Shown in pieces: positions 23,255 to 44,753 of a DNA stretch of 64,000 nucleotides. Both the position numbers and the translations under genes were made by a program. Position 1 is the stretch's first letter. Every line of letters begins with the position of its first letter. Location of the stretch: NCBI GenBank assembly GCA_041691135.1, contig JBEPVF010000001.1:224001-288000 (forward strand), read 5' to 3'. The notes beneath the pieces were generated by a model that saw only the letters and a program-made list of their open reading frames with translations, searched no databases and was not told the DNA's origin. Source of the stretch: Candidatus Peribacteria bacterium (GTDB lineage: Bacteria; Patescibacteriota; Gracilibacteria; Peribacterales; Peribacteraceae).

Positions 23255-23286
23255 CGCCAGACTGTTGTGACGTATGGTAGTGCGCT

Positions 23287-24939: not shown

Positions 24940-24971
24940 AACGATTTTGGCAGCGAAGACGCTTATGGTAG

Positions 24972-26213
<1,242 letters not shown>

Positions 26214-26217
26214 TTCT

Positions 26218-26745
26218 ATGGATAATCTATCACTGCGACCGGAACTTTTAGTAAAACCTGATCGTTTATCGTCTTCTGAAATAGTTAAACTTCGCGTGGA
26301 GGCAATAACAGAAGTTTTTAATGCGCATGCGAGGTCTGTCGGTATTTATCTGGAAGCATGGAAGGTGATGCTTTTGCGTCAAATTCCTACCAGCGAAAGT
26401 TCGACTGGGCATGCGCCTCTGCCTGATTTGGGTTCAGATTTCAGTGTGTGTCTATACCCTAATTTTGATGAAATTGACGGAACTGTAGGCCAAGCAATTA
26501 TAAACAATCGTGCTTCTCATATCTTCGTCATTGCTGATGGAAAACGTGCCTCAAAACCACAAGGTCTTACTGTGTTGCCGAATCACTTGAGCGGAAAAGA
26601 GAATGCAAATAACTATCCTGTTCTTAGCCGATCCATAGCAACGTACTCATTCCATGGAACAAGACGAATCATGAGCGATCGACAAGTTCCTGATATGCTG
26701 CAGGCGATTAGTTTTGAAAAGTTGCTGAAGCGCGAAACAGAGTAA
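26218..26745 (+). CDS. hypothetical protein
   Basis: 175-aa AT-richer ORF filling the gap. Confidence 0.55.
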   Translation: MDNLSLRPELLVKPDRLSSSEIVKLRVEAITEVFNAHARSVGIYLEAWKVMLLRQIPTSESSTGHAPLPDLGSDFSVCLYPNFDEIDGTVGQAIINNRASHIFVIADGKRASKPQGLTVLPNHLSGKENANNYPVLSRSIATYSFHGTRRIMSDRQVPDMLQAISFEKLLKRETE

Positions 26746-26758
26746 TTACTGTCATTTT

Positions 26759-27643
26759 TCATTCCACTCGTTCCCCCCACTTCAGCTTCGTCCGCAACGT
26801 CCCATAAAATGTATCCGGACTGCGGCGGAGGAATTTGACCGTGCGGTCGCACATTTTGGCATTGATGGTGTCTCCGCGTTGGAGCGTAATGTAGATCTGA
26901 CCATCGAGCGTCAGACTCACTTCGATGTCTTTGAATTTATTTTCGCGCGTGCAGACCTCCACATCAATCGTATGGTTGCCCGGAATGACGATCGGTTTCT
27001 GACTGAAACTGTGCGGATTGATGGGCGTCAGAATAGTTGCCGGAATCTGCGGATGGACAATAGGTCCCCCAGCCGCGAGGGAATAGGCAGTAGAACCAGT
27101 CGGCGTCGACAGAATGAGGCCGTCAGCTCTGAACACCGTCAGTTCTTCGCCATTGATACAGGTACGCAAATCGACCAGACGTGCGATCGTTCCCTGCGAG
27201 AGTACCGCTTCGTTGAGCACCGAACCGCGGTATAAGTTTTCCGTCCCGCGATCGGCGGATACATCGAGCATCGAGCGTTCCTCGATAAAACCTTCACCGT
27301 CCAGGAAACGCGGCAGCATCGATTCGACTTCCTGAAACGTCATCTCCGACAAAAATCCGACCGTGCCGAGATTGATAGTCAGCAAAGGAATGGTGAGAGG
27401 ATGAAATTCACGAACCACTCGTAAAATAGTGCCGTCTCCGCCGACGACGATGAGCAGATCGAGTTCATCCACCGTTTTGTAAAATTTATGTTTGGTCGCA
27501 AACGGCAAGTGACCGCATCGCTTGGCATCGAGCAGAAGATTCACACCGTGCGCGGCCAACATGTCCACGATCGAATGCAACGCTTCTTCGCGATGCGCGA
27601 GTTCTGTTTTAGCCGTGATGCCGATGGTACGATAGGCAGCCAT
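26759..27643 (-). CDS. nadK: NAD kinase
   Basis: GGDGT, LNE, DGLILSTPTGSTAYSLAAGG. Confidence 0.95.
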   Translation of the reverse strand: MAAYRTIGITAKTELAHREEALHSIVDMLAAHGVNLLLDAKRCGHLPFATKHKFYKTVDELDLLIVVGGDGTILRVVREFHPLTIPLLTINLGTVGFLSEMTFQEVESMLPRFLDGEGFIEERSMLDVSADRGTENLYRGSVLNEAVLSQGTIARLVDLRTCINGEELTVFRADGLILSTPTGSTAYSLAAGGPIVHPQIPATILTPINPHSFSQKPIVIPGNHTIDVEVCTRENKFKDIEVSLTLDGQIYITLQRGDTINAKMCDRTVKFLRRSPDTFYGTLRTKLKWGERVE

Positions 27644-27691
27644 GAACAAGATGCTAGCAGCCGGGAACAGGACTGCAAGGACCGACTGGGT

Positions 27692-28774
27692 TTACGCCCT
27701 CAATCCAGTAATGCCCGTCACTGTTTCGACAGCTGATAACACCAGATCGCCCGTACGTTGCCACGAGTAGCGTGCCGCCTGGTGGGGACCCTCGTCGCGC
27801 AGCTGCTGACACAAGGACCTATCGGTCAAAAGCCGTTCCAGACCTTCGGCAATGGATTCGATGCGTTCCGGATCGACAAGCAATGCGCCTGTCCCCACGA
27901 CCTCGGGCAGACTGCCGCGATCCGATGTAAGAGTCGGGATTCCCCGCTGGAGTGCATCAAGAATCTGCATTCCGAATCCTTCGTACAGGGACGGAAGAGC
28001 AAAGACGGTGCATGTCGCTAGCAAACGCAGATATTCTTCATCGGCAATGTACTGCCGCCATTCCACCCCCGGTGTCTGTTCGACGAGTTGCAGAATTTGC
28101 TGATCGTTCCAGCCGCGGGATCCGGCCAACACCAAACGATACTGAGCACGGAGCGGTGGCGATAGAAGACCATATGCGCGAATCAATCTGGCCTGATTTT
28201 TGCGCGGGCATAAGGTACCGACGCACAGAATGGTTTGATGATCGGGCCGGTTGGTTTCGACCGTCGCCTGCATCGGACCTGCATACACCGGCGTGATCTT
28301 GTCGGCACTCAGCGACTTGTATCGCCCCAGAAGATCCTGTTTGGTCGCATCACTGACCGTAAGAATATGCGCTGCATTCTCCACCGTACGCTGCAGCGTG
28401 AAGTGCTCAACAAAACGCGCCTTGCGATTGTGGGGTTCGGGACGAAATGCGATCAGGTCATGCACCATCGGAACGTAGGGAAATCGCTTTCCCAACAAAT
28501 AGGGAACCAGGTAACTGGTGGGACTCAGGTAAAGATCGATATCCGCCGCACTCTGCAGCAACGATGCCACGCGCACATGCCATTTGATGCCGCGCAGGGG
28601 GATCAAGACTTCCGTCGCTCCCATATCCTGCCATGCCAACGGCAGCGGATCTTGGGTGTAGCAAAGCAGTGGAAACTCCCTCGAAAGCAATTCTTGCACC
28701 AATGCGTAGGTCCATTGACCCTTGCCAGTACGCTCCGGCCGGCAGGCTTCCCGTACGTCTATTGCAATGCGCAT
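27692..28774 (-). CDS. GT4 glycosyltransferase
   Basis: HDLI, PRKN, PSLYEGFGMQILDA. Confidence 0.92.
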   Translation of the reverse strand: MRIAIDVREACRPERTGKGQWTYALVQELLSREFPLLCYTQDPLPLAWQDMGATEVLIPLRGIKWHVRVASLLQSAADIDLYLSPTSYLVPYLLGKRFPYVPMVHDLIAFRPEPHNRKARFVEHFTLQRTVENAAHILTVSDATKQDLLGRYKSLSADKITPVYAGPMQATVETNRPDHQTILCVGTLCPRKNQARLIRAYGLLSPPLRAQYRLVLAGSRGWNDQQILQLVEQTPGVEWRQYIADEEYLRLLATCTVFALPSLYEGFGMQILDALQRGIPTLTSDRGSLPEVVGTGALLVDPERIESIAEGLERLLTDRSLCQQLRDEGPHQAARYSWQRTGDLVLSAVETVTGITGLRA

Positions 28775-28836
28775 AGCAAGAATTTGAGTAGCCTTCACTC
28801 TAGCAAAAAGACCCCTCCGATGCTACTCTTCCATCG

Positions 28837-29418
28837 ATGCCTTCTCGTATTATACGCGGACTTACGGCAATGGATCTGGAGGAACAGATCATCAATGGCG
28901 GTGCCCTTCTGGCCCTCGTTTCGATTTTTTTTCCGTGGCTGAGCGGTGAATGGCTGGGCGGTGAAATCGTGTCGTTCTCCGGTTTCGGTTTCTATACGTC
29001 GCTCGTGGGCATCGTCGTCTTCCTGCTAGAACTTTGCATTTTGCTGATTACATTCGTGCCGCTGCTCGGCGGCCCGATTGTCGTCAAAAGACGGTATCGC
29101 GAATGGGTGCGTGTGGGTCTCGCCGCACAGGCAACGATTCTGATTCTCGTCATCCTGAGCATCCTCACTCGTGTCACGTTTGAATTCTCCCGCATGGAAG
29201 TCCGCTTCGGCGTCTACCTCGCCCTCATTGGCAGCTTCGTCACGCTGGTCGAGTCGGTCATCCGCCTCCATATGCATCGCCGAAATGCAACGCAAGAAGT
29301 GTTCCATCATCCAGAGGAACACACGATCAGCGAGCGCCGCGAGACAACGACACCCCCGCCCCCTCCGCCACCGCCACCTCCTCCTCCCGAGCCCGAAGAC
29401 CACCGCATGTATACATGA
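28837..29418 (+). CDS. 4-TM membrane protein with poly-Pro tail
   Basis: Hydrophobic helices then a long Pro run; start 28837 or 28870. Confidence 0.75.
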   Translation: MPSRIIRGLTAMDLEEQIINGGALLALVSIFFPWLSGEWLGGEIVSFSGFGFYTSLVGIVVFLLELCILLITFVPLLGGPIVVKRRYREWVRVGLAAQATILILVILSILTRVTFEFSRMEVRFGVYLALIGSFVTLVESVIRLHMHRRNATQEVFHHPEEHTISERRETTTPPPPPPPPPPPPEPEDHRMYT

Positions 29419-29804
29419 GTGACGATAAGCCACCAGAGGCCACCGTGAATATCGAGTCCAAACTCGAACAGCTCGCCTATGCCGATGAAGATTTGGTGTA
29501 TGTGGATCCCGATAAACGCATCGTCGTCGGCCGGGTGCAGTGGGGGAAAAATGGCAACCCAAAGCCAATGCTCATGGATGGCAGCGTCGAACCACTCGAA
29601 GAGAAAAAGGAAAGAAGTCCCAAAGATGCAAAAGGCGACAAGCCCGATCGTAAGAGTCGGGTTCTCCGTAAGCGCTATTACCCATGGGGCACGTACCGCT
29701 CGATGAAGCGCGTTTACAAAATTGACGGCAAGCCACCCAAGGTAGAGCCGATCGATACGCTGGATCAGGTAATGGAGAAAGCATTGGAGCAACCGTTTTG
29801 GTAA
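29415..29804 (+). CDS. hypothetical protein
   Basis: 4-nt overlap (ATGA) with upstream gene. Confidence 0.7.
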   Translation: MSDDKPPEATVNIESKLEQLAYADEDLVYVDPDKRIVVGRVQWGKNGNPKPMLMDGSVEPLEEKKERSPKDAKGDKPDRKSRVLRKRYYPWGTYRSMKRVYKIDGKPPKVEPIDTLDQVMEKALEQPFW

Positions 29805-29829
29805 GAGGACGGAGGAAACCGAGGACTCC
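29805..29829 (+). repeat. degenerate 9-mer tandem repeat (CCGAGGAAA/CCGAGGACT)
   Basis: Also at 36737-36778; both abut the structured element. Confidence 0.65.
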
Positions 29830-30076
29830 GACCCCCTTCACTACTCCTAGGCGGCCCTAAGCCGCCCAACCTCTTCGCACGTTCGCAATTCCAAGCAAAC
29901 ACCCCTCCGACTATGTGGTGGGGATGAGTGGTTACGAGCCCTGCTGTCGCCAGCCCACAGGCGCGACAGCAGGGCGAGGTGGGTCATAGGCGGTGCGCTT
30001 CTTTTTGGTTCTTTTTCTTGTCGCGGGGAGACAAGAAAAAGAACACCAGTGGTGACTGGGAAGGTTGGTGCTGGGG
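29830..30076. ncRNA. structured repeat element, copy A (ncRNA or non-autonomous element)
   Basis: Aligns with 36780-37059; compensatory stem changes. Confidence 0.75.
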
Positions 30077-30159
30077 AATCATGAACATCCGCAGGTAGCA
30101 AACCCGCTCCCAATTTTGTCAGTAATCTACTAATTAAAAGACAATCAATACCTCAGAAC

Positions 30160-30185
30160 CCGCAGCCGGGGACGGCTGCTGCTAC
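30160..30185 (-). repeat. GTAG-type REP, distal copy
   Basis: 26 nt identical to 44806-44831. Confidence 0.88.
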
Positions 30186-30200
30186 AGAAAAATGTATCAA

Positions 30201-31133
30201 TTAGGCTTTCAATGCCTCGCAGACTTTCTCCACCGCCCCTTTCGATCCCATCACAATCGGCGTCCGTTGATCCAGACTGGTGATTTTCGTATCCAGCAAC
30301 GACTGTGTGCCATCGCTCACGATACCACCGGCTTGATCAATCAGATACGCAAACGGCCCGCATTCGAAGATCATTCGCAGTTTGCCATCCGGGAATTTTC
30401 CGCCGCCGACGTTGAAGAATACACCTTGGCCCTTACTGAGGACGTGATGTGCATCAGCCACCATGCAACCGGCATAGCGCAGAGTCATGGTTTTCGACCA
30501 TTCCTGTACCAATGTCTTGAGCGCCGGGTGATCTTGGACGGCCGCCAAATTTCCGGGACTGAATGTTTTTGCCGTATCGCCAACGCCAAGGAATTCACGC
30601 AGAAGTATGAACTCACCAACCTCATTCAAAATAAATTCGTGCACGCCGTTACCAGCGGCGTAGACAAGCAACGTGCGGGGCCCATAAAGAACATACAGCG
30701 CGGCGACTTGATCACGAGGCGTGCGACCGATGATGTCGGATCCCGGATAGATACCAAAGATTGACCCAATCGCGAAATTCACATCGACCAGTGACGAGCC
30801 ATCAAGCGGATCGTAGACAACGCTGTACGGCGCATCGGCATTAAGTTCAATAACGTCATCCGATTCTTCCGAGAAATGCGTTGCAACCAATCGGCTCTCG
30901 GCCAGATTCTGGCGAATAATATCTTCGCTGAGCACATCGAGCTTCACCTGTTTTTCGCCGAACTGATTCTCGGTTCCCGCCAAACCGGCCTCCGTCGTGC
31001 GGATCGCATGATGAATGTACTTCGCCGCCGTCGCGATATGGAGAATCAGATGTCGCAAGTCATCAGGCGCTTTGGCGTGCGCAAACAGGTGTTCGTTGAG
31101 TGATGAACGTCCTGGCGAGAGAGAATCGGGCAT
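30201..31133 (-). CDS. fbp: class 1 fructose-1,6-bisphosphatase
   Basis: SEE, DPLDGSS, RYAGCMVAD, GKLRMIFEC. Confidence 0.95.
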   Translation of the reverse strand: MPDSLSPGRSSLNEHLFAHAKAPDDLRHLILHIATAAKYIHHAIRTTEAGLAGTENQFGEKQVKLDVLSEDIIRQNLAESRLVATHFSEESDDVIELNADAPYSVVYDPLDGSSLVDVNFAIGSIFGIYPGSDIIGRTPRDQVAALYVLYGPRTLLVYAAGNGVHEFILNEVGEFILLREFLGVGDTAKTFSPGNLAAVQDHPALKTLVQEWSKTMTLRYAGCMVADAHHVLSKGQGVFFNVGGGKFPDGKLRMIFECGPFAYLIDQAGGIVSDGTQSLLDTKITSLDQRTPIVMGSKGAVEKVCEALKA

Positions 31134-31222
31134 AGTTCGTGAGAGGAGGTGTATGCAGAATAGCGAAGTATGGCAAAGAAATCAGCAGATTGTGCCCGCC
31201 TTCCCGCGAATCCCTTAAACCC

Positions 31223-32239
31223 TCAGATCAATGCCCCCATTTTCATTGCCATCTCGGTTACGCGCATGGCGTAGCCCCATTCATTGTCGTACCAACTGAG
31301 AATCTGTAACGCAGTGCCATCCACGATTTTGGTCGATGGAGCATCCACGATCGACGAGTGTGGATCGGTTTGGAAATCAATCGAAACACATTGGTCATGT
31401 GATACCGACAGGATTTCCGTCAGAGCCGGCGTCCTGGCAGCCGACTCCAGCGCCTGATGCACCTCTTCGACCGTCGTGGCCTTCTTGACCGCAAATGCCA
31501 TGTATGCGCAACTGACGGTCGGCACGGGTACGCGGAATGCCATGCCGTCGAGTTTGCCTTTCAGATGAGGAAAGATTTTGGCGCACGCTTTGACGGCTCC
31601 GGTCTTGGTGGGAATTATCGACAACGTAGCCGCACGTGCCCGGCGCATTTCGCCTTCTTCCTGGGGACGATTATCGAGCAGATTCTGCGACGATGTAAAC
31701 GCATGCACCGAACTCACCAGCAGATGCTGCACACCGAATATTTCATCGATGACTTTGATGACCGGGGCGATACAATTGGTCGTACACGAGGCATTCGAAA
31801 TGATCAGCATATCTTTGGTCAGCTGATCATCATTTACGCCCTTCACGAAAGTCGGCGTATCGTCTTTCATAGGAGCCGTGACAATCACGCGTTTGGCACC
31901 AGCAGCCAGATGCCCCTTGGCCTGTTCGGCCGTTTCGAAGTGACCCGTCGATTCGACCACCACATCCACCTTCAATTCCTTCCACGGGCACTTGGCCGGA
32001 TCACGCTCCTTCACCACCATCACTTTTTTGCCATTCACCGTAAAATGATCATCACCGACTTCGATATCGCCCTTGAGCTTTCCATGCAGGGAATCGTATT
32101 TGAGCAGATAGGCCCGCATTTCGCTGTTGGAGGAAGCGTTGACCGCAACCACTTCCACTTGATCAGCATAGCGCTGCAAAAACTGACGGTGCACATTGCG
32201 ACCAATCCGACCGTATCCGTTAATAGCAACTCGTAACAT
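31223..32239 (-). CDS. gap: glyceraldehyde-3-phosphate dehydrogenase
   Basis: INGYGRIGR, SNASCTTNC, WYDNEWGY. Confidence 0.97.
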   Translation of the reverse strand: MLRVAINGYGRIGRNVHRQFLQRYADQVEVVAVNASSNSEMRAYLLKYDSLHGKLKGDIEVGDDHFTVNGKKVMVVKERDPAKCPWKELKVDVVVESTGHFETAEQAKGHLAAGAKRVIVTAPMKDDTPTFVKGVNDDQLTKDMLIISNASCTTNCIAPVIKVIDEIFGVQHLLVSSVHAFTSSQNLLDNRPQEEGEMRRARAATLSIIPTKTGAVKACAKIFPHLKGKLDGMAFRVPVPTVSCAYMAFAVKKATTVEEVHQALESAARTPALTEILSVSHDQCVSIDFQTDPHSSIVDAPSTKIVDGTALQILSWYDNEWGYAMRVTEMAMKMGALI

Positions 32240-32304
32240 GGTTGAATGATACTGAAAAAAGCAGGAAAGTGAAGCTGAGAGGGCTCCTAAAATCCTATCC
32301 GAGC

Positions 32305-33633
32305 TTATCCTGTTACCGCAAACACCAGCCCGATGAAGGCAAAGAATGCCCCGATGATCCACAACCGCATCGTTACCTTGCTTTCGCCCCATTCAAGCGC
32401 TTCGAAGTGATGATGAATCGGCGCTGCTTTGAATACCTTCTTGCCGCCTCGGAATTTTTTACTGGTCAGCTGAATGATGACCGACAGCATCTCGATGACG
32501 AAGACAAAACCAACCAGCGGCAGGATCAATGCCTGATCGGTCATCATGGCGATGAGACCGAGCGTCCCGCCCAGTGCGAGTGCGCCGGTATCGCCCATGT
32601 AGAAAAGTGCGGGCGGCACGTTGTGCCACAGGAAGGCGGCGAGTGCGCCGGTAGTGATCGCACAGAATCCGGCCAGGACATACAACCCGTGCAAATAGGC
32701 AAGCACGCCGAAAGCACCGAAAGCAATAATCAAGAGGCCGCCTGCCAACCCGTCCAATCCATCGGTCACATTCACCGCATTGGCCGTCCCAACGATGATG
32801 AACATGAAGAAGGGAATGTACAGCCAGCCGAGTCCGATCGTACCGATATGCAATGCACTGAACGAAAAGAGGCCGTAGAAGGGGACGTAAACTGCATCCC
32901 GTTCAAGTTTAAAATAGAACCAGAACGCTCCAAGTAACGCCACGAGCAGCAGCGACGTAATCTTCGGCAGAACAGCCAGACCTTTTTTAGCCCCCTGCTT
33001 CACCAAAAAGCGCATAAACCACTCATCGATTTTTTTGCCAACGGCCAGATACACCAACAAAAGAACCACGACAATCAAAAGTCCGGCCGCACCGGCAGAA
33101 GTGAGAGCATGCGAGAGATCAGCCCACACGCGCAATGGCGTACTGAAAATGAAAACCAGACCAACGATCACGGCCACGATACTGAGAATAAAAAAGGCTT
33201 TCATTGTCGGAACGAACTCGCGGATTTTCTTCTCGTCGCTGCTCACAATGTTCAAGTAGTCATCAACCGCACCAAGAATGCCGAGCGCGATCATCGTCAG
33301 CAGCGGCAAGTACACCTCCGTACGCTGAAGCAGTGAATTATGTACGACACCGAATAATGCCAGAACGCGCGAAAAAATAATCGTGAGCACGATGGAGCCC
33401 CAGATAAGCAAGCCACCCATCGTTGGCGTGCCGAATTTTTTCTCGTGATACTTGCGAAAAATCGATGCCTCGCGGCCATCGACCGTCTCGACACGTAATT
33501 GCTTGCCCAAGCGATTCCGACGCAAAAATGAGATAAACCACGGTGTCAGAATAAGACCCAAGAGGAACGCAAAAAAAGCGTATCCAAGAATGAAATGCAC
33601 CGAAAGTTCCGGACGGGGGAGAGGGGAAGGCAT
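32305..33633 (-). CDS. mraY: phospho-N-acetylmuramoyl-pentapeptide transferase with internal insertion
   Basis: GTPTMGG, DD, NAVNVTDGLDGL, MGDTG, APIHHHFE; start 33633 or 33669. Confidence 0.93.
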   Translation of the reverse strand: MPSPLPRPELSVHFILGYAFFAFLLGLILTPWFISFLRRNRLGKQLRVETVDGREASIFRKYHEKKFGTPTMGGLLIWGSIVLTIIFSRVLALFGVVHNSLLQRTEVYLPLLTMIALGILGAVDDYLNIVSSDEKKIREFVPTMKAFFILSIVAVIVGLVFIFSTPLRVWADLSHALTSAGAAGLLIVVVLLLVYLAVGKKIDEWFMRFLVKQGAKKGLAVLPKITSLLLVALLGAFWFYFKLERDAVYVPFYGLFSFSALHIGTIGLGWLYIPFFMFIIVGTANAVNVTDGLDGLAGGLLIIAFGAFGVLAYLHGLYVLAGFCAITTGALAAFLWHNVPPALFYMGDTGALALGGTLGLIAMMTDQALILPLVGFVFVIEMLSVIIQLTSKKFRGGKKVFKAAPIHHHFEALEWGESKVTMRLWIIGAFFAFIGLVFAVTG

Positions 33634-33690
33634 AGCAATAGGATAGAACTGTTGTTCAGTAATTGGCAACAGAGAGGATTCCCCGAGTCC

Positions 33691-35070
33691 TCAATCATCA
33701 TCATTCCCTCTGCTCATCGCACTATGCGCCACATCAACATCATAAAATCTGGTCTGCTCTTTTTTGAAAACCAACTCCACTCGACCCACCGGACCATTAC
33801 GATGTTTGCGGATGTACACGTCGCACATACCCGGACGCGAACTGTCTTCTTCGTAGTAATCCTCGCGGTAGAGCATCATCACCACATCGGCATCCTGTTC
33901 GATGGAACCGGAATCACGCAGGTCGGAAAGTTGCGGAATGTTTCCCGGGCGTGTTTCGACGGCGCGTGATAGTTGCGAGAGCGCCAGAATCGGCACCCGT
34001 AGTTCGCGGCCGATCTGTTTGAGAGTACGCGAAATTTCGGAAATTTCCTGCACGCGATTGCCGGCGAAGTGACTGTTGCCGGTGCTCATCAGTTGCAGGT
34101 AATCGATGATGATCAGATCCAGACCGTACTCCATCTGCAACCGCCGCGCCTTGGCCCGCAATTCCGGCAACGATGAAGCGACAGAATCATCGATGAAGAT
34201 GTTGGCCTTGTTGAGCTCATCCATGATCGGACCCATGTTCTGAAAATCACCGTCATCGAGCTTTCCGCGCTGGAGCTTCCACGAATCGACGCCCAGCATC
34301 GAGGCGAACAAACGATCGACCAGTTGTTCCTTGCTCATTTCGAGCGAGAAGATGGCAACCGTTTTGTTATTTTTGATACTCGCATTTTGAGCTATGTTCA
34401 GCGCCAAAGCCGTCTTTCCCATCGAAGGGCGGGCGGCTAAAATGACCAGATCGCTCGGCTGTAAACCGGACAGTTTATTATCAAGCGCCTGGAATCCGGT
34501 CGGCACGCCTTTGACCGCGCTGTCATCGCCGGCCTCGTGCATCTCGGCAAACTTTTCGTAGCGAGCTCCCAGAATTTCACGGATGTGGACGAATTTATCT
34601 TTGAGGAATGTATTGCTGATGGCAAAGATGGATTTTTCCACTTCGTCGAGGAGTTCTGTCACCGGTCGCTCTACTTCGTACCCCAGTGCCGTAATCTTCT
34701 GTCCGGCCTCAATGATGCGGCGATGTACGGCCTTCGTTTTCACGATCTGGCCATACTGATAGATATGCGAAGACGTAGGTACTCCGGTCGCAAGATCTGC
34801 TAAAAACGCACTGCCACCGATCTCCTGAATGCGTTTATTGTCAGCCAGACGAGTCGAGACAGTCACGAAGTCGATCGGCTCGTGCCGTTGGTACAGGTCC
34901 ATGATCGAGCTGAAGATCATGCGATACGTCGGGTCGTAGAAATCATCAGGCTGCAACAAGTCTGACACCTTAATAATGGCTTCTGGATCAAGCAAAAGAG
35001 CTCCCAAAACCGTCCGTTCCGCTTCGGTGGCATGGGGTTGCGCTTCGAGGATGGATGGAATCACGGACAC
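33691..35070 (-). CDS. dnaB: replicative DNA helicase
   Basis: ARPSMGKT, SLEMS, IDYLQL, LRDSGSIEQDAD; no intein. Confidence 0.97.
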   Translation of the reverse strand: MSVIPSILEAQPHATEAERTVLGALLLDPEAIIKVSDLLQPDDFYDPTYRMIFSSIMDLYQRHEPIDFVTVSTRLADNKRIQEIGGSAFLADLATGVPTSSHIYQYGQIVKTKAVHRRIIEAGQKITALGYEVERPVTELLDEVEKSIFAISNTFLKDKFVHIREILGARYEKFAEMHEAGDDSAVKGVPTGFQALDNKLSGLQPSDLVILAARPSMGKTALALNIAQNASIKNNKTVAIFSLEMSKEQLVDRLFASMLGVDSWKLQRGKLDDGDFQNMGPIMDELNKANIFIDDSVASSLPELRAKARRLQMEYGLDLIIIDYLQLMSTGNSHFAGNRVQEISEISRTLKQIGRELRVPILALSQLSRAVETRPGNIPQLSDLRDSGSIEQDADVVMMLYREDYYEEDSSRPGMCDVYIRKHRNGPVGRVELVFKKEQTRFYDVDVAHSAMSRGNDDD

Positions 35071-35164
35071 AAGCAGGGAGAGAACGAAAGATTATTCATT
35101 CTATGGTTCTCAGTCGTCCACGCAATGAAATGAGCATGACACCGCTCGACTTCCTGACGAAATG

Positions 35165-35195
35165 TGTGCGCAATGTGTGGAGAGAATGTGGATAT
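35165..35195 (-). promoter_or_regulatory. three phased DnaA-box-like 9-mers upstream of dnaB
   Basis: ATATCCACA, CTCTCCACA, TTGCGCACA at 11-bp spacing. Confidence 0.45.
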
Positions 35196-35250
35196 GTCTC
35201 GTAGGAGCAGCTGCAAGAGGAGATATAACAAAAAAGCCTACTGAATAACC

Positions 35251-35293
35251 AACAAAAAGAGATCAGTGGCTAGTTACAATCTAGTCACTGATC
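35251..35293 (-). terminator. recA intrinsic terminator
   Basis: 13-bp near-perfect stem followed by TCTTTTTTGTT on the minus strand. Confidence 0.75.
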
Positions 35294-35340
35294 ATAGTCC
35301 TGATCCCATTTATCTTGAACGAATGAAGCAAGACGACAGA

Positions 35341-36438
35341 TTACACAATCATTCCGGATGACGTCCGAATCTCCGCATCCAGCTTCTTCACAATTTGTGG
35401 ATTCTGAAGAAGGAACATACGCGCCTGCTCACGTCCTTGTCCGAGTGTTTCCTCGCCGTACCGGAAGTACGCACCGGCTTTCTCGATCACATTGAACTTC
35501 ACCCCCAAGTCGAGAATTTCGCCTTCGCGACTGATACCATTGGCATAGAGAATATCGAACTCGGCCTGACGGAATGGAGGAGCGACCTTGTTTTTCACGA
35601 CTTTGACACGTGTACGGTTGCCAACAATTTGCTGATTCTCATCAGTTTTTTCGCCGGTCGCCTTATCGAGCACTTTATCGATGCGACGCACATCCAGACG
35701 CAGTGATGCATAGAACTTCAGCGCATTACCACCGGTCGTTGTTTCGGGGTTGCCGAACATTACGCCGATCTTCATGCGCAACTGGTTAATGAACACCACC
35801 GAACAACTGGTCTTACTCACAATGGAAGTGAGTTTGCGAAGAGCCTGACTCATCAGACGAGCCTGCAGACCCATGTGGCTGTCACCCATCATGCCTTCGA
35901 TTTCGGCCCGCGGAGTGAGAGCTGCGACTGAGTCGATGACAACGATGTCGATGGCGCCGGACCGAACGAGTGTTTCGGTAATCTCGAGCGCCGACTCGCC
36001 ATCGTCCGGCTGCGAGACCAGAAGATTGTCGACATCCACACCGATCTTTTTGGCATACTGCACATCCAGGGCATGTTCCGCATCGATGAATGCCGCCTTG
36101 CCTCCACTTTTCTGTACTTGTGAGATGGCATGGAGTGCGAGCGTCGTCTTACCCGATGACTCAGGACCGAAAATTTCGATGATGCGTCCCAGCGGAATGC
36201 CGCCGCCCAGTGCCAAGTCGAGCGATAGGGAGCCAGAGGAAACTTTGCGAATATTGACTGCATACGTGTCATTCATCTGCATAATGGCGCCTTTGCCATG
36301 CCGTTTTTCAATTTCCTGAAGAGCTAATTTGATGGCATCGGCCTTGCCTGATGCGACACTTTCTTTGGCAGAGGGGGATTTGGTCGGCTTTGTAGTTGGT
36401 TCCATGAGTGCGGAATCGGAAGAAGTAGTACGAGGCAT
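35341..36438 (-). CDS. recA: recombinase RecA
   Basis: [33 protein letters not shown]. Confidence 0.98.
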
Positions 36439-36779
36439 GATAGAGGGAGGAATAAGAGGAGGTAAATGAAGAAAGTTGGAACGTTACAGAATGGGGACGA
36501 GTGAACGCCGGACAATCGGCTATGCCGCATGCATCGCGGCGTTCTACTCAGGAATGGAACAGATGAGTGGGGGAATGGAAGTAAAGGAGGTGTCTGAACG
36601 TCCACCCACATCCTAACAAATCATCGTAGGAGGTCAAAAAAGTGTCCTTGAAAGCCTTTTAGTTTATGTTGGTGTATTATCGTACACCATCAGGTTGGGC
36701 TACAGCCTGAGCTGGGAAAATCGCTTCTACGATTTTGAGGACTCCGAGGAAACCGACGGCGCCGACGAAGCCGAGGACA

Positions 36780-37059
36780 GACCCCCTTCACTACTCCCAG
36801 GCGGCTACAGCCGCCTAACTTCTTCGCAGGCTCACAATTCCAGACAATGACCCCCTCCGCCTATGTGGTGGGGATAGGTGGGTACGAACTTCCTTGTCGC
36901 CTGCCCATAGGCGCGACAAGGAAGTGAGGTGGGTCATAGAGGCGGCCTGTCCGGCGTAGCCCGCAGGCGAAGTCGGATGCGCTTCTTTTTGGTTCTTTTT
37001 CTTGTCGCGGGGAGACAAGAAAAAGAACACCTTGAGCGATTGGAAAAGTTTGTGCCGAG
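36780..37059. ncRNA. structured repeat element, copy B, with 32-nt nested hairpin
   Basis: Aligns with 29830-30076; extra segment 36946-36977. Confidence 0.75.
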
Positions 37060-37195
37060 TTGAAGTCTGACCATCGCGCCAAGAGATGGCGCTCTACAGG
37101 TGCGGCACATGCTCACGATGAATCACCTACATTCCACCACCCGCGGAGAAAGCGGCAGCGCCACGCTTATGAAACTGCAGTGATGCTGTGGACAA

Positions 37196-38107
37196 TCAAT
37201 AGGCTGTGCAATGCCCTGTATTTGATGCTTGATCTTCGACTATGCAGTACTGACCTGCCGGACAAAGGATTCCAGCCACGCCACCACACGGCCCACCAGG
37301 TTTGGCAACACGGGAACCTGTCGCTGTCGTGGTGCCAGTGGGAGGAAGTTTGGCTTTCGTGGTACTGCCACTGGCCGCGAGCGTGCCCGAGATGCGCACG
37401 GATTGCAGAATACGTTCCACGAGATCACTGCTGACGAGCGGCTGAAGCACATCGCCCGGTGCAAAGATGAACGTGATGACTGTCGCGTCTTTCGCCGTAG
37501 TTGCCTGATCTTCGATCGAAACATTGAGCGAATCGGGTGTGCGATGCATGACCGCACGATGCAACGAGACAGGTGAAGGCAAAACAGCCACCGCTCCGGT
37601 ACCATCGGTTGCAGCCGCCCAATCGTACGGCAAGTCGGTCATCTTTTCGCGCAGGATCGTAAGCGGAGGAATCGTTGAACCGGAAGCCGAAAACGTGGCA
37701 ATCGATTTCTTGATATCCGCTTTCCAACTGGCGGGAACGGAGAGGCTCATGGAAAAAGCCGGGACGGTCCATTCGCGCAAGTCCGCCTGGTCATCCTTGA
37801 TCGCCGTCACATTGATGACCGGTGCGAGTTTCGTATCCGTATTGGCACTGAATGTTCCGGTGATATCGATCGGATGATTGGCATGTCGGAACAGATCGAT
37901 GGTCGAGCTATCGGCAAAATACAATGGCTGGCCGCTGACCAGCACTTCGTGCGTACCGCGACGGGCAATATTGATCGGCAACGGCCGCAACACCACATTG
38001 CGCAACGTTTGCTCGCCAACGGGAATAGCGGATTGTGACGAGCCACCGCACGCTGCCAGGAGCGAACAAGTGAGTGCGAGCGCGACGAGAGAGTTCCGTG
38101 CAAACAT
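37196..38107 (-). CDS. lipoprotein with C-terminal Cys-rich module
   Basis: Lipobox LAAC; CGGVAGILCPAGQYC...C. Confidence 0.8.
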   Translation of the reverse strand: MFARNSLVALALTCSLLAACGGSSQSAIPVGEQTLRNVVLRPLPINIARRGTHEVLVSGQPLYFADSSTIDLFRHANHPIDITGTFSANTDTKLAPVINVTAIKDDQADLREWTVPAFSMSLSVPASWKADIKKSIATFSASGSTIPPLTILREKMTDLPYDWAAATDGTGAVAVLPSPVSLHRAVMHRTPDSLNVSIEDQATTAKDATVITFIFAPGDVLQPLVSSDLVERILQSVRISGTLAASGSTTKAKLPPTGTTTATGSRVAKPGGPCGGVAGILCPAGQYCIVEDQASNTGHCTAY

Positions 38108-38151
38108 GACGGCAATAATTTTATCAGTGACCGATGGCTATGGTAAGTGCG

Positions 38152-39258
38152 TTACGCCTTCTTGCTCAGATCCAGAGCGTACACCGCACGACCGACGCGC
38201 GTGAAGTACGGCATTTTCTGCAAGTTGAGCGAAATGGTACCCACCTTCACGGTGCGCTGCTTGGCGACTTCGGCGATGATCTCGCGCTTCGACAGCGGAC
38301 CCTTATCGCGCAGGATATTTTCGATCACGTCGGCGACCGTACCCGGCTCGTAGCCCCATTCACGCAGTGCGTACAGACCGCGACCGACCAACACGAATTG
38401 AGGGTAGCGGATCAACTCGTTGTGCACCGCCTGGACCGTGACATGCTTGTGATCGAAGCCAGCCTCGCGAATACGGTTGGCGATTTCCATAAAGTGCAGC
38501 GGCTCGCCGGACTTGCGAAGAATGATTTCGACTTTGTCGCGGATGCTGCGCGGACGGACGAATCTCCATTCGGTCAAACCCCAACCTTCGTCAATCTCGC
38601 GGAGACGTTCATCGATTTTGAGCGTGCTGACAATGAGTTCACGGCTCGGCACGCGATCTTTGAACAAGTTGAGCGCCTGGATGGCAGACACGAGTTCATC
38701 CTGCTTCATGCAGGTCTTGCGCTTGCGCAGGATGCGCACGATGTTATCGACGATCAACGAAATATCATCGGCTGACAAACTGCTGAGTCTCCAGAACGGA
38801 ACGAACGTGCTGTTCTTACCGGTGGAACTCATCTCGTTATCGATGGAGAACGACAGGCGGAGCACTGCGCCATCGGCCTGTGCACTTCCTTGAATGCGCT
38901 TGAGGACGAGACTGATCAACTCGTCTTCCGGCATGACACCGCCATGGAGGCGGAGGATATTCTTTGCAAGTTCATTGACCTCATCGAGTCGTGTGGTCCG
39001 CACCGTGCGGCGGAGCTTGCTGAGGGCAATGGCCTCGATCTGACGGATGCGCTCACGTGTGACTTTGAAATGCTTGCCGATCTTTTCCAGAGTCTGCTTC
39101 GGCTGGCCAAATAAAGCGAAGCGTTTCTTAATCACCATGACTTCCTTTTCGGTTAATACCAGAAAAAGATTTTGAAGCAAATCCTGTAAGTTGACGGTAA
39201 TTTGAGAGTTCATGGCTTGCTGGTGAGGAGTGGCAGTAGTCGTAACCGGAGTCGGCAT
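38152..39258 (-). CDS. sigma70 region-4-like HTH plus winged-HTH protein
   Basis: TLEKIGKHFKVTRERIRQIE; PLHFMEI, VHNELI, VLVGRGLYAL; no sigma region 2. Confidence 0.8.
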   Translation of the reverse strand: MPTPVTTTATPHQQAMNSQITVNLQDLLQNLFLVLTEKEVMVIKKRFALFGQPKQTLEKIGKHFKVTRERIRQIEAIALSKLRRTVRTTRLDEVNELAKNILRLHGGVMPEDELISLVLKRIQGSAQADGAVLRLSFSIDNEMSSTGKNSTFVPFWRLSSLSADDISLIVDNIVRILRKRKTCMKQDELVSAIQALNLFKDRVPSRELIVSTLKIDERLREIDEGWGLTEWRFVRPRSIRDKVEIILRKSGEPLHFMEIANRIREAGFDHKHVTVQAVHNELIRYPQFVLVGRGLYALREWGYEPGTVADVIENILRDKGPLSKREIIAEVAKQRTVKVGTISLNLQKMPYFTRVGRAVYALDLSKKA

Positions 39259-39420
39259 GGAGGGCGGGGAAAGAACAACCCTCGTTTTACCAGATAATTG
39301 ACAGGAGCAAAAGAACTTCACAAGAGAGATGTAGACGACGACCATGACTTGTTTCACGCTGTTTCAATGTCAGGAAGTCACTACACTGTAAGTGATACTT
39401 TAATTTAAATTCACCAATTG

Positions 39421-39819
39421 TCAATAGCCTAAATAGGTAGTCAGAATCTGGGTGGCCGCTGCCGCGTTATCGTCTTCTGCTTGCGGTAAAACACGTTCTT
39501 TGCGCTCTCCTGATGTCCGCCGTGGGGTGGTATATCGCTCGTCTTTATAGAGAAGGGGAGTACCCAGAGCTTCCAGGAGCGCTCCGTACTCACGAACGAT
39601 GCTCGTTTGCGTGCCTTCTTCACCGGAGGGAAGCAGTGGAAGACCGATCAGAATCGTATCGATAGAACGAGCATCGCGAATTTTTTTTACCGCATCACAC
39701 AGCTGTTCTTTCGTGCGATGTTCGATCGTGTCGAGCGGCAGGGGAATGCCATTATCGGTATCGACGTATGCGACGCCGGTGTGGCGAGTGCCGATGTCGA
39801 GAGCGAGGAGACGGGGCAT
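39421..39819 (-). CDS. ruvX: YqgF/RuvX pre-16S rRNA nuclease
   Basis: LALDIGTRHTGVA, IGLP, DERYTT, AAATQIL. Confidence 0.92.
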   Translation of the reverse strand: MPRLLALDIGTRHTGVAYVDTDNGIPLPLDTIEHRTKEQLCDAVKKIRDARSIDTILIGLPLLPSGEEGTQTSIVREYGALLEALGTPLLYKDERYTTPRRTSGERKERVLPQAEDDNAAAATQILTTYLGY

Positions 39820-39845
39820 GTAAATTGAGAATTGATAATGGAAAA

Positions 39846-40397
39846 TTATTCGTTGAAAGAATTGATGGCCGTGAGCAATTCGGGGAAAGAAGTGTAACCG
39901 GCGGCGGCATTCAAATGTCCGCCGTGAGGGATGACATGCAGCGGTGCGCTCAGAAAGTCGCTCAGCTCTCTTGTTTTGTCGATGGAGACAAAGGGATCGT
40001 CGTCACCACAGAATACTTCGAAGTGTCCGCACTGCGCGCGCAAGCGCTGGCGATCGAACAGTTGAATGAACGATGTCATGCGTGGAGCGTAGGCGTTATT
40101 CGGCAATGTCATGAAACCCGAGACGAGAAATGACGCAGCGACCGGTTGGTCGAGCGACGAAAGCAGTGAGAGAAGAAAGGGGACTCCCAAACTGTGTCCG
40201 ATCAAAATTGTTTGATCGTTCATCTGCGAACGATACGGTTCCATATACGTGAGCCACTCATCGAGTGTCGGCTGATCCGCATGCGGCAATGCCGGTATGG
40301 TCACTGTATGACCCTCGGCTTCCAGCTGCTGCTTGAGCCACGGAAACCAGTTCTCGGCCGGGTGTCCTTCGATGCCGTGAAAGATGAAAAACTGCAT
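39846..40397 (-). CDS. RBBP9/YdeN alpha/beta hydrolase
   Basis: HG...WFPWL, GHSLG, DDPFV, GGHLN. Confidence 0.9.
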   Translation of the reverse strand: MQFFIFHGIEGHPAENWFPWLKQQLEAEGHTVTIPALPHADQPTLDEWLTYMEPYRSQMNDQTILIGHSLGVPFLLSLLSSLDQPVAASFLVSGFMTLPNNAYAPRMTSFIQLFDRQRLRAQCGHFEVFCGDDDPFVSIDKTRELSDFLSAPLHVIPHGGHLNAAAGYTSFPELLTAINSFNE

Positions 40398-40498
40398 GGG
40401 GATGAGGATACTCTCTGAGAACCTAGCAGCAAAAACTTGATTACACTATTGATGATAAAGATTATGAACATAAGATTAATCAATAATAATCACATGCA

Positions 40499-40523
40499 AC
40501 ACCCCGACCATTGGTCGGGGTGT
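40499..40523 (-). terminator. hairpin after small membrane ORF
   Basis: ACACCCCGACCA-T-TGGTCGGGGTGT. Confidence 0.55.
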
Positions 40524-40544
40524 GCCCATTCCTGAGTCGTGACT

Positions 40545-40739
40545 TCAGTCCCGAAGTTGGTAACCGAAGAAGGCAAAACCGCCTGCGAGCTGCACGCCGG
40601 GGAGAAAGGCACAGGCAGCCGCATACAGCCGGAATCCAATCGGTTCATCCAAGAAACCGAGCAGGCCGAGGCAAAGCAGTAATGTGATAACTGCGGCCAC
40701 CCCTGCTGCAACAATCAAACGCCTCCCGATTTTTTCCAT
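40545..40739 (-). CDS. small 2-TM membrane protein (64 aa)
   Basis: GAGGA SD, consensus promoter upstream, hairpin downstream. Confidence 0.62.
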   Translation of the reverse strand: MEKIGRRLIVAAGVAAVITLLLCLGLLGFLDEPIGFRLYAAACAFLPGVQLAGGFAFFGYQLRD

Positions 40740-40820
40740 TGTCGTCCTCGAATTGTGGAATGAGCAGTCCAGCCAGAGCCCGGCACGAGCCAAGCAGCAT
40801 AAGCGCTGAACATATTTATT

Positions 40821-40848
40821 ATTATAATTAATATAAATTAAATGTCAA
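40821..40848 (-). promoter_or_regulatory. consensus sigma70 promoter
   Basis: TTGACA-16nt-TATAAT on the minus strand. Confidence 0.7.
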
Positions 40849-40939
40849 TTTAAGTACATAAAAGGAGCAGGATAGACAAAGCAAGCAGGAAGAAAATGTA
40901 AACACGAATGCTCTTTAGTTCTGATTTATTGCAGCTGCT

Positions 40940-41941
40940 TTATTCCATCGATAGCGACACTCTGAGACCAGCGTGATCGGAAGAAGATGTGACGACAGGA
41001 ATGATTTCGTACGAGGCTATCGGCAGTGACGGATCAGCGAGCGCCCAATCGATGCGCCAGACACGCAGAATGCGATCGGTCCATGTGGCGGGAAAATGAG
41101 ATGTTCCGCGCGTGGCGGCATCAGTAAAACGCGTAAGGAACCATCGCATCGACCCCATTGCATGGCTCGTATTGAAATCGCCAGCGATGTAGTGGGGAAG
41201 GGGATTGGCGCTGATGTCCTGCTCAAGCGCAGTGAACTGACCGCTGCGCATAACAAAGTATTTATGAAGCGACTGCATGAACCTGACCGGCTGTTTAAGT
41301 AGTGATGGATTCACCGGATTGGACAGATGCACATTGTACACACTCACAACCTGGTTCTGAATGCGCAGATCGGTGCGCAGAAATTGTGTACTGCGTACCG
41401 TGTCGACTATCGGATACTTCGTGAGCGTGATGAGTTCGCCATTCATCACGAGCGTGTAGCCGGGAAACTGTTGCGTGATCTCGTCGAAATCGTGAAGCAA
41501 CGGTTCGTCCTGCCGGTTCATGTGCTCCTGCAACAGGATGACATCAGCCTGCTGCGCATGGATGAATGCGTAAAAATCCTGGCGATCACCATCCTGCCAG
41601 TACTCGGTATTCCAATTGAAAATCACCGGTCCATTCGCATTGCTCATCACCTGTTTCGCGAATGGAAGAACGACATCGCTGTTCATCCATACCAAAGGAA
41701 ACGACAGACACAGGATGAGAAGGCCGATCCATCGCCGCCGCATCAGGCCCACCAAAAAAAGAATGACGAACACACCCAGAAAGACATTCGGCGGAATCAC
41801 CAAAAAGATATTCCACCACCACACGCGTCCCATCAGCCACACGTGCAAGGACATGAATAGGGCGAACAGCAAAACAAGTGCATGCCTCCGGCCGAATAAG
41901 AGAAAAGGTTTCAAAGACACACCGAAAGAATACAGGCACAT
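40940..41941 (-). CDS. endonuclease/exonuclease/phosphatase family protein with N-terminal TMs
   Basis: NWN, LQE, NVHL, GDFN, RID, SDH. Confidence 0.88.
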   Translation of the reverse strand: MCLYSFGVSLKPFLLFGRRHALVLLFALFMSLHVWLMGRVWWWNIFLVIPPNVFLGVFVILFLVGLMRRRWIGLLILCLSFPLVWMNSDVVLPFAKQVMSNANGPVIFNWNTEYWQDGDRQDFYAFIHAQQADVILLQEHMNRQDEPLLHDFDEITQQFPGYTLVMNGELITLTKYPIVDTVRSTQFLRTDLRIQNQVVSVYNVHLSNPVNPSLLKQPVRFMQSLHKYFVMRSGQFTALEQDISANPLPHYIAGDFNTSHAMGSMRWFLTRFTDAATRGTSHFPATWTDRILRVWRIDWALADPSLPIASYEIIPVVTSSSDHAGLRVSLSME

Positions 41942-41959
41942 CCGAAATAGTTCCGTTGA

Positions 41960-42220
41960 TTACTTCGCAGCTACCAGCCTGCTCACCATCGACTTCTTGC
42001 GAGCGGCGTTGTTCGGATGGATGATCTGCTTCTTGGCGGCCGTATCAATAGCCTTAAAGACGAGTGGGAGCATTTTTTGACCCTCTTCCTTCTTGCCAGC
42101 CTTGGCCAGATCGGTGATCTTGCGGATCATCGTCTTGAGTTGCGTTTTGTAGGGCTGACGGCGTGTTCGGCGAACGGTATTCTGACGGGCACGCTTGATG
42201 GCGGACTTGATAATAGGCAT
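41960..42220 (-). CDS. rpsT: 30S ribosomal protein bS20
   Basis: KSAIKRARQ...IHPNNAARKKS. Confidence 0.95.
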   Translation of the reverse strand: MPIIKSAIKRARQNTVRRTRRQPYKTQLKTMIRKITDLAKAGKKEEGQKMLPLVFKAIDTAAKKQIIHPNNAARKKSMVSRLVAAK

Positions 42221-44227: not shown

Positions 44228-44253
44228 GTAGAAGCAGCCGTCCCCGGCTGCGG
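44228..44253 (+). repeat. GTAG-type REP, left of RAYT
   Basis: GTAG-AA-GCAGCCG-TCCC-CGGCTGC-GG. Confidence 0.88.
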
Positions 44254-44315: not shown

Positions 44316-44753
44316 ATGTCTCAACGTCATCCGATCCAAAACGATGCCATCATGTTCGTCACGACAAATATTCGTCATAAACAGCCAATTTTTTCAAATG
44401 AAGCTTGCGCGACAGAAGCCGTAGAAACCCTTTACCGCGTTCAGCAACTTCATCCATTTTTCTTATATGGTTTTGTAGTTATGCCTGACCATTGCCATTT
44501 TCTGCTGAAAGTTATGGCACCCTATACCATTTCAAAACTTATGAGCACTTATAAATCAAATGTGGCTTTAAATATTGGTATGGGAAATATCTGGCAAGAA
44601 CGTTTTCACATTCGACTTCCCAACAAGCCAGAAGCATCACGAACATATATTCATACTAATCCAGTAAAGGCCGGTATCATTGAACATGCCAATTTATATC
44701 CTTGGTCATCCGCATCAGCAAAATGGGATGTATCGCCTATAGAAATTTTTTAA
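44316..44753 (+). CDS. REP-associated tyrosine transposase (RAYT, HUH Y1)
   Basis: FVTT, VMPDHCH (HUH), WQERF, YIHTNPVKAG, YPWSS. Confidence 0.9.
   Translation: MSQRHPIQNDAIMFVTTNIRHKQPIFSNEACATEAVETLYRVQQLHPFFLYGFVVMPDHCHFLLKVMAPYTISKLMSTYKSNVALNIGMGNIWQERFHIRLPNKPEASRTYIHTNPVKAGIIEHANLYPWSSASAKWDVSPIEIF

Follow-up and report, generated by a model that had tools for sequence, protein, structure and literature searches.

Repetitive extragenic palindromic (REP) sequences are imperfect palindromes of 20-40 nt with a conserved GTAG-type tetranucleotide at the 5' end, which flank or co-occur with a gene for a REP-associated tyrosine transposase (RAYT). Non-autonomous elements derived from IS200/IS605 are characterised by a cognate Y1 TnpA (often with TnpB), subterminal hairpins at both ends and a fixed target/cleavage motif, and single-stranded DNA (ssDNA) transposons of the IS200/IS605 type by a structured single strand, the lack of terminal inverted repeats and an orientation bias related to replication. 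Among RNAs, telomerase-type pseudoknots and elements of the ENE/MALAT1 type are built from a helix rich in U-A pairs whose major groove receives a U-rich strand, now and then with a C+.G-C triple. A further group, known for more than 20 years without a function, is formed by the intrastrand-triplex repeats of Proteobacteria and Cyanobacteria named PIT, BoxC and TMECO (Hoyne et al. 2000, cited in Holder et al. 2015, PMC4666352). In the accessible part of Holder et al. 2015 (PMC4666352), the TMECO/BoxC consensus is given as CCCTCNCCC N3-6 GGGNGAGGG N3 GGGNGAGGG, and TMECO of E. coli is described as having no bias in strand orientation. The present analysis concerns a repeated intergenic element with a 3' module bearing the comparative marks of an intrastrand triple helix, two copies of which (A and B) lie on a 64,000-nt stretch, here called the window (positions 224,001 to 288,000 of contig JBEPVF010000001.1), that is part of the assembly GCA_041691135.1 (1.74 Mb, 35 contigs, 92% complete). 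The host is a tiny groundwater-type Candidatus Peribacteria bacterium of the Candidate Phyla Radiation (CPR).

Copies A and B (Table 1) were found where the first-pass annotation of the window, made from the letters of the sequence, had placed two look-alike copies, and their bounds are now set by alignment. They align over about 245 and about 280 nt, respectively, with a 32-nt insertion in copy B and the central stem as the main differences. The insertion and further length changes of 2-3 nt break any reading frame, so that a coding reading was ruled out and the element is considered non-coding. Structure counts were made on 21 full copies aligned from the host genome, using the helices drawn in the first-pass annotation with the addition of a closing helix, P1. 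The whole drawn structure was paired in 94.4% of cells, compared to 87.2% in shuffles (0 of 500 reached the observed value) and to 40-52% in controls with slid partners. The suggestion that structure is under selection in a single strand is upheld by this pairing, unmatched by any shuffle.

The individual helices differed in their support. For the central 13-bp stem, which had been proposed to vary with compensation on both sides, both-sided changes were identified at 11 of 13 pairs, with 97.6% of cells paired. Seven sequence versions of this stem occur (in 8, 6, 2, 2, 1, 1 and 1 copies), and copies with unlike versions were found to be 50% identical in the stem and 86% identical in the remainder (88% for copies sharing a version), meaning that the stem is free to vary while its pairing persists; it is also shuffled relative to the other modules, themselves mosaic. 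The GGCGGC/GCCGCC hairpin was present with varying loops in all 21 copies, as had been described, but it does not covary, five of its six pairs being invariant. The 15-bp hairpin had been called invariant; it does not differ between A and B, yet covariation is seen among other copies, at 4 of 15 pairs within the host genome and with both-sided changes at 9 of 13 pairs once relatives are added. A proposed long-range AACCT/AGGTT helix was rejected, as its key pair is unpaired in 8 of the 21 copies.

Covarying paired regions with conserved loops are also features of functional RNAs, and a stem that is 50% identical within copies 86% identical elsewhere would fit old, constrained paralogues. Both would be expected of a family of independently transcribed small RNA genes (approximately 100-250 nt) with their own promoters, in which the variable stem would confer specificity or be a free peripheral stem. 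Such a family is nevertheless regarded as improbable, given that no common promoter-like motif was seen by eye upstream of the element in about 25 sequences of relatives (no motif search was run), that the upstream modules vary between copies, that copy positions are not conserved between congeners, and that the polarity described below would orient nearly all of the genes one way with respect to replication without evident reason.

The 3' module consists of a pyrimidine tract, a short spacer and the 15-bp hairpin, and changes of the hairpin in other copies and in relatives were found to be accompanied by changes in the tract upstream of it. Within element loci of the host genome and its relatives, 109 instances of the module were parsed, 88 of them distinct. 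The tract mirrors the pyrimidine arm of the hairpin over a run of at least 6 nt, with a fixed 5-nt spacer, in 78 of the 88 distinct modules, and 73 of these 78 mirror it perfectly over 7 nt. Tract and arm covary in five distinct patterns, and the mirror holds for all 28 modules with an asymmetric pattern. A reading of the tract as a direct repeat, forming an alternative hairpin, was rejected, since its register is inconstant and it fails for the same 28 modules. On permutation of arms to tracts (8 distinct tract-arm combinations), 5 of 10000 permutations matched the observed fraction of perfect matches. The mirroring never extends to the first 3-4 bp at the base of the hairpin.

A tract that mirrors the pyrimidine arm is a parallel complement of the purine arm, and thus fits a pyrimidine-motif triple helix built of T.A-T and C+.G-C triads. 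Since changes in this third strand are matched in both hairpin arms, the covariation constitutes comparative evidence for a triple helix. The module has three consecutive blocks able to form these triads in parallel, which is how the class of intrastrand triplexes is defined, and the block order of Hoogsteen tract, pyrimidine arm and purine arm is that of class IV of Holder 2015, or of class II when the other strand is read. No report of a third strand covarying with both hairpin arms was found in the searches made of the literature on triplex repeats, nor was anything relevant found among the papers listed for RNA triple helices combined with bacterial, ENE or intergenic elements.

Pairing between the linker that follows the P1 helix and the hairpin loop was also examined in the 88 modules. 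The first linker nucleotide and the last loop nucleotide are T-A in 56, A-T in 8, T.G in 16 and another combination in 8, with A-T found in all 8 modules whose linker starts with A; all three linker-loop pairs are Watson-Crick in 28 of the 88. If real, this pairing may close an H-type pseudoknot, and the strand order of the module would then fit that of the telomerase and ENE/MALAT1 triplexes. The topology differs from that of the ENE clamp, the linker-loop helix has two or three pairs that are partly supported, and the evidence for the element comes from DNA: one DNA run contains the stretch, and no RNA run is listed for it.

The PIT/BoxC/TMECO repeats are the described group nearest to the element. 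With these, as presented in the accessible part of Holder et al. 2015, it shares the succession of Hoogsteen tract, pyrimidine arm and purine arm along a single strand and a multi-copy, always intergenic occurrence with no tie to a known transposase, at sites that differ between close relatives. The element departs from that group in that its module is A/T-rich and of class IV on the folding strand, unlike the G/C-rich, class II repeats; in that its triplex is one module of a larger fold containing P1, G-rich segments and a variable domain; in that it is strictly strand-polar (26 of 30 copies on the C>G strand), unlike TMECO; and in that it is confined to one CPR family. Its 3' module, being A/T-rich and of another sequence, does not conform to the TMECO/BoxC consensus. 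The larger conserved fold and the strict polarity are two handles absent from the elements of E. coli, and they make the formation of the triplex in vivo, and the strand on which it forms, testable.

The closing helix P1 shows strong covariation: across the family, 33 different P1 helices (at least 7 bp each) were identified, their 5' strands occurring in 29 versions, and together they comprise 289 Watson-Crick, 9 G.T, 2 A.C and 7 other pairs. Mismatches in the hairpin were G.T in 8 cases and A.C in 1, giving totals of 17 G.T against 3 A.C for the two helices combined. Single-sequence folding was alike on both strands (z = -4.6 and -4.5). The wobble bias and the pyrimidine type of the triplex indicate that the folding strand is probably the + strand as written; the first-pass annotation had assigned none. 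On this strand the element would fold into P1, with the G-rich segments and a variable slot inside it, followed by the 3' module, in which the pyrimidine tract would lie in the major groove of the following hairpin as an intrastrand triple helix, with two or three linker-loop pairs possibly closing the pseudoknot.

The distribution of the element was investigated with a covariance model, for which 17 sequences of the 3' module served as input, since blastn gave only fragments in relatives. The model matches 102 of 151 genomes of the family, belonging to 55 of 84 genera, with 1 to at least 33 matches in each element-bearing genome. In a class-wide sample, 14 of 15 further family genomes had matches, as did, weakly, 3 of 135 genomes of other families; the element is specific to one family of Candidatus Peribacteria. 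In sequences from other genera a common plan was recognised, consisting in the 5' to 3' direction of a G-rich flank, the 5' strand of P1, conserved G-rich segments, a slot, the 3' strand of P1, the linker and the triplex module. The slot inside P1 is either empty, occupied by the hypervariable hairpin (in the genus of the host) or occupied by a hairpin-bearing domain, in which case the P1 loop is approximately 100-115 nt.

The element matches no family of Rfam 15, in agreement with the first-pass annotation, which had recognised no named family. At the gathering score the window yielded only two tRNAs; copy A at E up to 10 gave only chance matches to miRNA and snoRNA families, and the loci of seven relatives at E up to 1 gave no match on the element. 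Literature searches on noncoding RNA of Peregrinibacteria found none, and the paper listed for structured intergenic RNA in the Candidate Phyla Radiation was unrelated, judging by its title and the opening of its abstract. One direct repeat region and short origin repeats are the sole repeats mentioned in the accessible part of the 2016 PeerJ paper on Peribacteria genomes (PMC4736985).

Copy A is situated between the stop of a 129-aa open reading frame (ORF) without known identity (+) and the end of the fructose-1,6-bisphosphatase (FBPase) gene (-), and copy B has the start of recA (-) on one side and, on the other, the end of a 303-aa ORF without known identity (-). No match to the model was found in the orthologous spacers upstream of recA and downstream of FBPase in four congeners. 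The FBPase-side spacer measures 60 nt and 174 nt in two congeners compared to 405 nt in the host genome, with the flanking genes aligning, and in the second congener other repeats occupy both the recA-side and the FBPase-side spacers. As copies are missing at orthologous sites of congeners, the element has been gained or lost between species, and the behaviour of a non-autonomous element that had been suggested for it is consistent with these empty sites.

Other repeats were encountered at such loci. In congener G004 a long hairpin (locus L152, 1330-1500) encloses a GCCTGTCC...CGAAGG-like mini-element similar both to the 32-nt insertion in copy B and to insertions in two other relatives, and an orthologous spacer of the same congener (L150) holds a tandem TGCAAGA-type array. 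The recA gene of G004 is split over two contig ends (L150, L151), probably by an assembly break and not as a broken gene. An apparent autonomous copy at contig ends of one relative was dismissed as assembly breaks within the repeat, and an apparent location of the element in the rRNA operon spacer of a relative was discarded, since a protein-sized ORF intervenes and no 23S follows over the next 2.7 kb.

In the host genome, 26 anchors of the core element were identified by a search with a 15-nt core motif, 27 matches by the covariance model of the 3' module, and 38 match clusters by blastn with copies A and B, 22 of the latter being internal and at least 190 nt long. Several contigs start or stop inside a copy, and many of the breaks between contigs of these metagenome-assembled genomes are explained by the element. 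Each of the 26 anchors lies in an intergenic region between long ORFs, with only short, overlapping ORFs touching the copies.

Polarity was assessed against GC skew. On host contigs with several copies, all copies lie on one strand per contig, and for 26 of 30 host copies the element strand was the C>G strand, as judged from the surrounding 50 kb. Of the four exceptions, three have a local skew within 0.011 of zero, and the fourth, at -0.027, lies on a contig where the skew changes sign. The same skew was observed in genes of either orientation, showing that it characterises the whole strand and does not result from gene orientation, and the polarity rule held for all 7 copies co-oriented with both of their neighbours and for 7 of the 9 anti-oriented to both. 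In a single-contig relative, two minus-strand copies lie in the positive-skew part and eight plus-strand copies within the negative-skew part or at its edge; in a second relative the polarity agrees at the two windows measured, and among 29 three-kb loci of five relatives the flank skew agrees in 23. The type 2 REP (14 of 15 sites) and a BoxC-like module (14 of 18) follow the same polarity; many of these adjoin the element and are not independent of it. This polarity, the triple-helix signature and the spread through the family had not been noted in the first-pass annotation.

The orientation of the element thus ignores neighbouring genes and follows a replication-associated asymmetry, which makes it unlikely to be part of their mRNAs and most likely to act at the DNA level, in single-stranded form. 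The interpretation that we prefer, with belief and doubt about evenly balanced, is that of a DNA repeat of the BoxC/PIT kind, polar with respect to replication and conserved in structure, which would act as ssDNA. The fold would matter chiefly in ssDNA in connection with replication, with copies coming and going at gene ends between species, and with a single orientation, set by the replication-associated strand asymmetry, being retained or inserted. The polarity would then reflect either insertion coupled to the replication fork or survival dependent on orientation; tolerance of one orientation only is possible if synthesis on one of the templates is stalled by the fold. This conserved structure may be what some protein, neither RAYT nor reverse transcriptase, recognises. 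A more specific proposal is put forward tentatively and is on balance rather doubtful: a triple-helix pseudoknot folded in one DNA strand at the fork and read by a host or mobile enzyme, by which a repeat without a transposase would insert or survive in one orientation across an entire family of ultra-small bacteria or, failing that, the first bacterial RNA triple-helix 3'-end element.

Several observations count against a replication-polar ssDNA repeat. In relatives G149, G044 and G087, whose genomes are complete or nearly so, the skew is clear and strand-wide with no gene-strand bias; in G149, assembled as a single contig, dnaA lies 120-150 kb from a skew switch, and under the usual G>C rule the 16S rRNA and the S10 operon would be head-on and rpoC co-directional in the three relatives. 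Attempts to assign the leading strand by means of dnaA, 16S, S10, rpoC and the strand bias of genes were abandoned, as the markers disagree and such a bias is absent; either the skew is inverted in the family or the markers are scattered. A pyrimidine-motif triplex and tolerance of G.U would suit RNA equally as well as DNA. Copies in the host genome are 74-93% identical, with no two the same, leaving recent movement unsupported, and no target duplication or terminal repeats were found for the element, nor any partner protein or transposase. The unpaired G-rich segments are strongly conserved across genera, which suggests a host function or a protein partner, and related genomes are not independent, so that the counts given here overstate the number of events.

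Gene context bears on whether the element might instead be a cis-acting RNA at gene ends, in which P1 and the U-rich tract would terminate transcription and/or the triplex hairpin would cap the 3' end against exonucleases, making the element the bacterial equivalent of triple-helix stability elements. Contexts rest on crude ORF calls, with both neighbours called for 22 of the 26 anchors of the host genome: 7 copies lie between tandem genes co-oriented with the element, 9 between tandem genes anti-oriented to it, 5 between convergent genes and 1, a copy with an internal deletion, in a divergent spacer. A terminating or capping RNA is at odds with the 7 co-oriented against 9 anti-oriented copies, and equally with the 4-7 against 7-8 counted in relatives; element orientation being independent of the neighbouring genes, about half of the copies would be transcribed as the wrong strand. 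It does agree with the 29 loci of five relatives, at which, in 23 of 28 called loci, the next gene on the hairpin side has its end facing the element, and the most frequent context is a convergent spacer (12 of 29, and 15 of 33 in a wider set), and with the preference of the G.U tolerance for the + strand. The type of triplex concerned is stated to form in RNA in the accessible part of Holder et al. 2015 (PMC4666352). Also in its favour, canonical terminators, with a hairpin plus T run, are not enriched in window positions 22001-42000 (23, against 22.2 in shuffles). Against it, the U-tract begins 5 nt after P1 and nothing U-rich lies 3' of the hairpin. On balance this explanation is judged unlikely.

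The modules that accompany the core element in the host genome are of several kinds. Repeats of a CCGAGGA-type 9-mer stand 5' of both A and B, as the first-pass annotation had it, and precede 9 of the 26 copies in all; a different 5' module, BoxC-like, precedes a further 14 of the 26. The BoxC-like module is the reverse complement of the TMECO consensus with a loop of approximately 13-90 nt in place of 3-6 nt. It comprises two C-rich 9-mers 3 nt apart, the loop and a G-rich complement, with 18 pattern matches in the host genome, for example 5' of copies on contigs C2, C5, C7 and C11, outside the window. A further repeat module of approximately 110 nt was seen 5' of the BoxC-like module in 8-9 copies. 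The 9-nt periodic module also stands alone at five further intergenic sites of the host genome (C3:101860, C12:4740, C2:9990, C10:35616 and C9:21748), and its GAGGAnnCC-type repeats sit just 3' of stop codons whether the element is present or not. At C3:101860 the last 9-nt unit folds as a hairpin with a T run after it, resembling an intrinsic terminator.

On the 3' side, nearly every copy of the host genome is followed by one of three REP types. The REP approximately 85 nt 3' of copy A is indeed identical to the pair flanking the RAYT-like ORF of the window, as had been noted in the first-pass annotation, with three matches in the window compared to 0.01 expected. REP types 2 and 3 fit the definition of a REP, being GTAG-type and co-occurring with RAYT; the core element has no such unit. 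Y1 matches in the host genome comprise three RAYT-like ORFs and one IS200-like TnpA. These regions lie at window 44234-44825 and at C5:61831, C11:30505 and C8:12924, and the full IS200-like TnpA on C8 is 2 kb from an ORF matching the reverse transcriptase domain RVT_1.

Like the mosaics of REP and RAYT systems known as bacterial interspersed mosaic elements (BIMEs), the element occupies gene-end sites, is mosaicked with short structured modules and breaks assemblies, with genuine GTAG-type REPs and RAYT-like ORFs near it in the host genome. Unlike a REP of 20-40 nt, its core is 100-250 nt long, with a long-range helix and a triplex, and its presence does not track Y1 genes. The RAYT-like ORF is linked to the REPs, and no link of this ORF to the core element was demonstrated. 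The element would have joined REPs, the BoxC/TMECO-like module and the 9-mer repeats into BIME-like mosaics in the host genome and expanded there. In relative G044 a copy (L181) is flanked on both sides by direct, double-hairpin REP-like repeats of approximately 65 nt (at about 1200-1270 and 1570-1640), so that REP-like mosaic association extends beyond the host genome. REP/RAYT systems and BIME-like mosaics are thus found in a CPR genome of less than 2 Mb, where repeats had been regarded as scarce.

These neighbours would be accounted for by a MITE-like element (MITE, miniature inverted-repeat transposable element) moved through ssDNA by Y1 (HUH) transposases of the RAYT/IS200 type, perhaps only in the composite form seen in the host genome. 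The polarity that the type 2 REP shares with the element, with the reservation that many of its sites adjoin it, and the size of the host genome, larger than the 1.0-1.4 Mb of its congeners, accord with such movement. Across the 151 genomes of the family, however, the link to RAYT proposed in the first-pass annotation was not borne out: element and Y1_Tnp (PF01797) occur together in 62, the element alone in 40, the protein alone in 34 and neither in 15 (odds ratio 0.68), the 40 genomes including several that are 98-99% complete and carry 14 to at least 33 copies without any Y1 match. As the core also lacks a GTAG-type REP of its own, movement of this kind is thought to be quite unlikely. The structured single strand, the orientation bias and the absence of terminal inverted repeats recall ssDNA transposons of the IS200/IS605 type; unlike in these, no TnpA/TnpB partner was found for the element and no cleavage or target motif was identified. 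With regard to derivation from IS200/IS605, four Y1 matches were identified in the host genome, with no family-wide association and no end motifs identified, and no match to the TnpB-type domain (PF07282) was found in this genome, which is 92% complete.

Movement by a reverse transcriptase had likewise been proposed. A retro-mobile RNA might be copied into DNA by such an enzyme, whether that of a diversity-generating retroelement or another, and the host genome does encode an RVT_1 ORF. The family-wide comparison gave no association here either, with element and RVT_1 together in 28 genomes, the element alone in 74, the protein alone in 14 and neither in 35 (odds ratio 0.95). One genome with 24 copies and 99% completeness has no RVT_1 match, and no poly-A or other marks of retro-insertion were seen. 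This route is considered highly improbable.

Table 1. Location of copies A and B, their predicted structural parts and associated repeats, in window coordinates.
Feature	Position	Strand	Remark
9-nt periodic GAGGAnnCC-type repeat module	29805..29832	+	directly after the stop codon of ORF 29415-29804
Copy A, core element	29833..30076	+	bounds from alignment
5' hairpin GGCGGC/loop/GCCGCC	29850..29866	+	observed only in this genus; 99.2% paired, no covariation
P1 closing helix, 5' strand	29907..29915	+	partner 29985-29993; one A.G mismatch in copy A
Hypervariable 13-bp hairpin	29938..29975	+	conserved tip GCC N4 GGC; sits in the slot inside P1
P1 closing helix, 3' strand	29985..29993	+	pairs with 29907-29915
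Linker (5 nt) and putative pyrimidine Hoogsteen tract	29994-29998 (linker); 29999-30006 (tract)	+	tract mirrors the pyrimidine arm of the next hairpin
15-bp pyrimidine/purine hairpin	30008..30044	+	arm 30008-30022, loop 30023-30029, arm 30030-30044
REP-like hairpin, type 1	30089..30109	+	3' of copy A
REP type 2	30162..30185	+	GTAG-type on - strand reading; 30162-30179 identical to REPs flanking the RAYT-like ORF
9-nt periodic repeat module	36737..36779	+	5' of copy B
Copy B, core element	36783..37060	+	P1 36857-36865 with 36935-36945; variable hairpin 36888-36925
32-nt insertion between P1 and linker, copy B	36946..36977	+	found in 6 of 21 aligned copies
Copy B, 3' module	36983-36990 (tract); 36992-37028 (hairpin)	+	
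REP type 3	37075..37097	+	GTAG-type on - strand reading; 3' of copy B
RAYT-like Y1 transposase ORF	44316..44753	+	inverted type 2 REPs at 44234-44251 (-) and 44808-44825 (+)

Elsewhere in the window, a tRNA-Ile gene was identified at positions 5064-5140, with the anticodon TAT, which is uncommon in bacteria.

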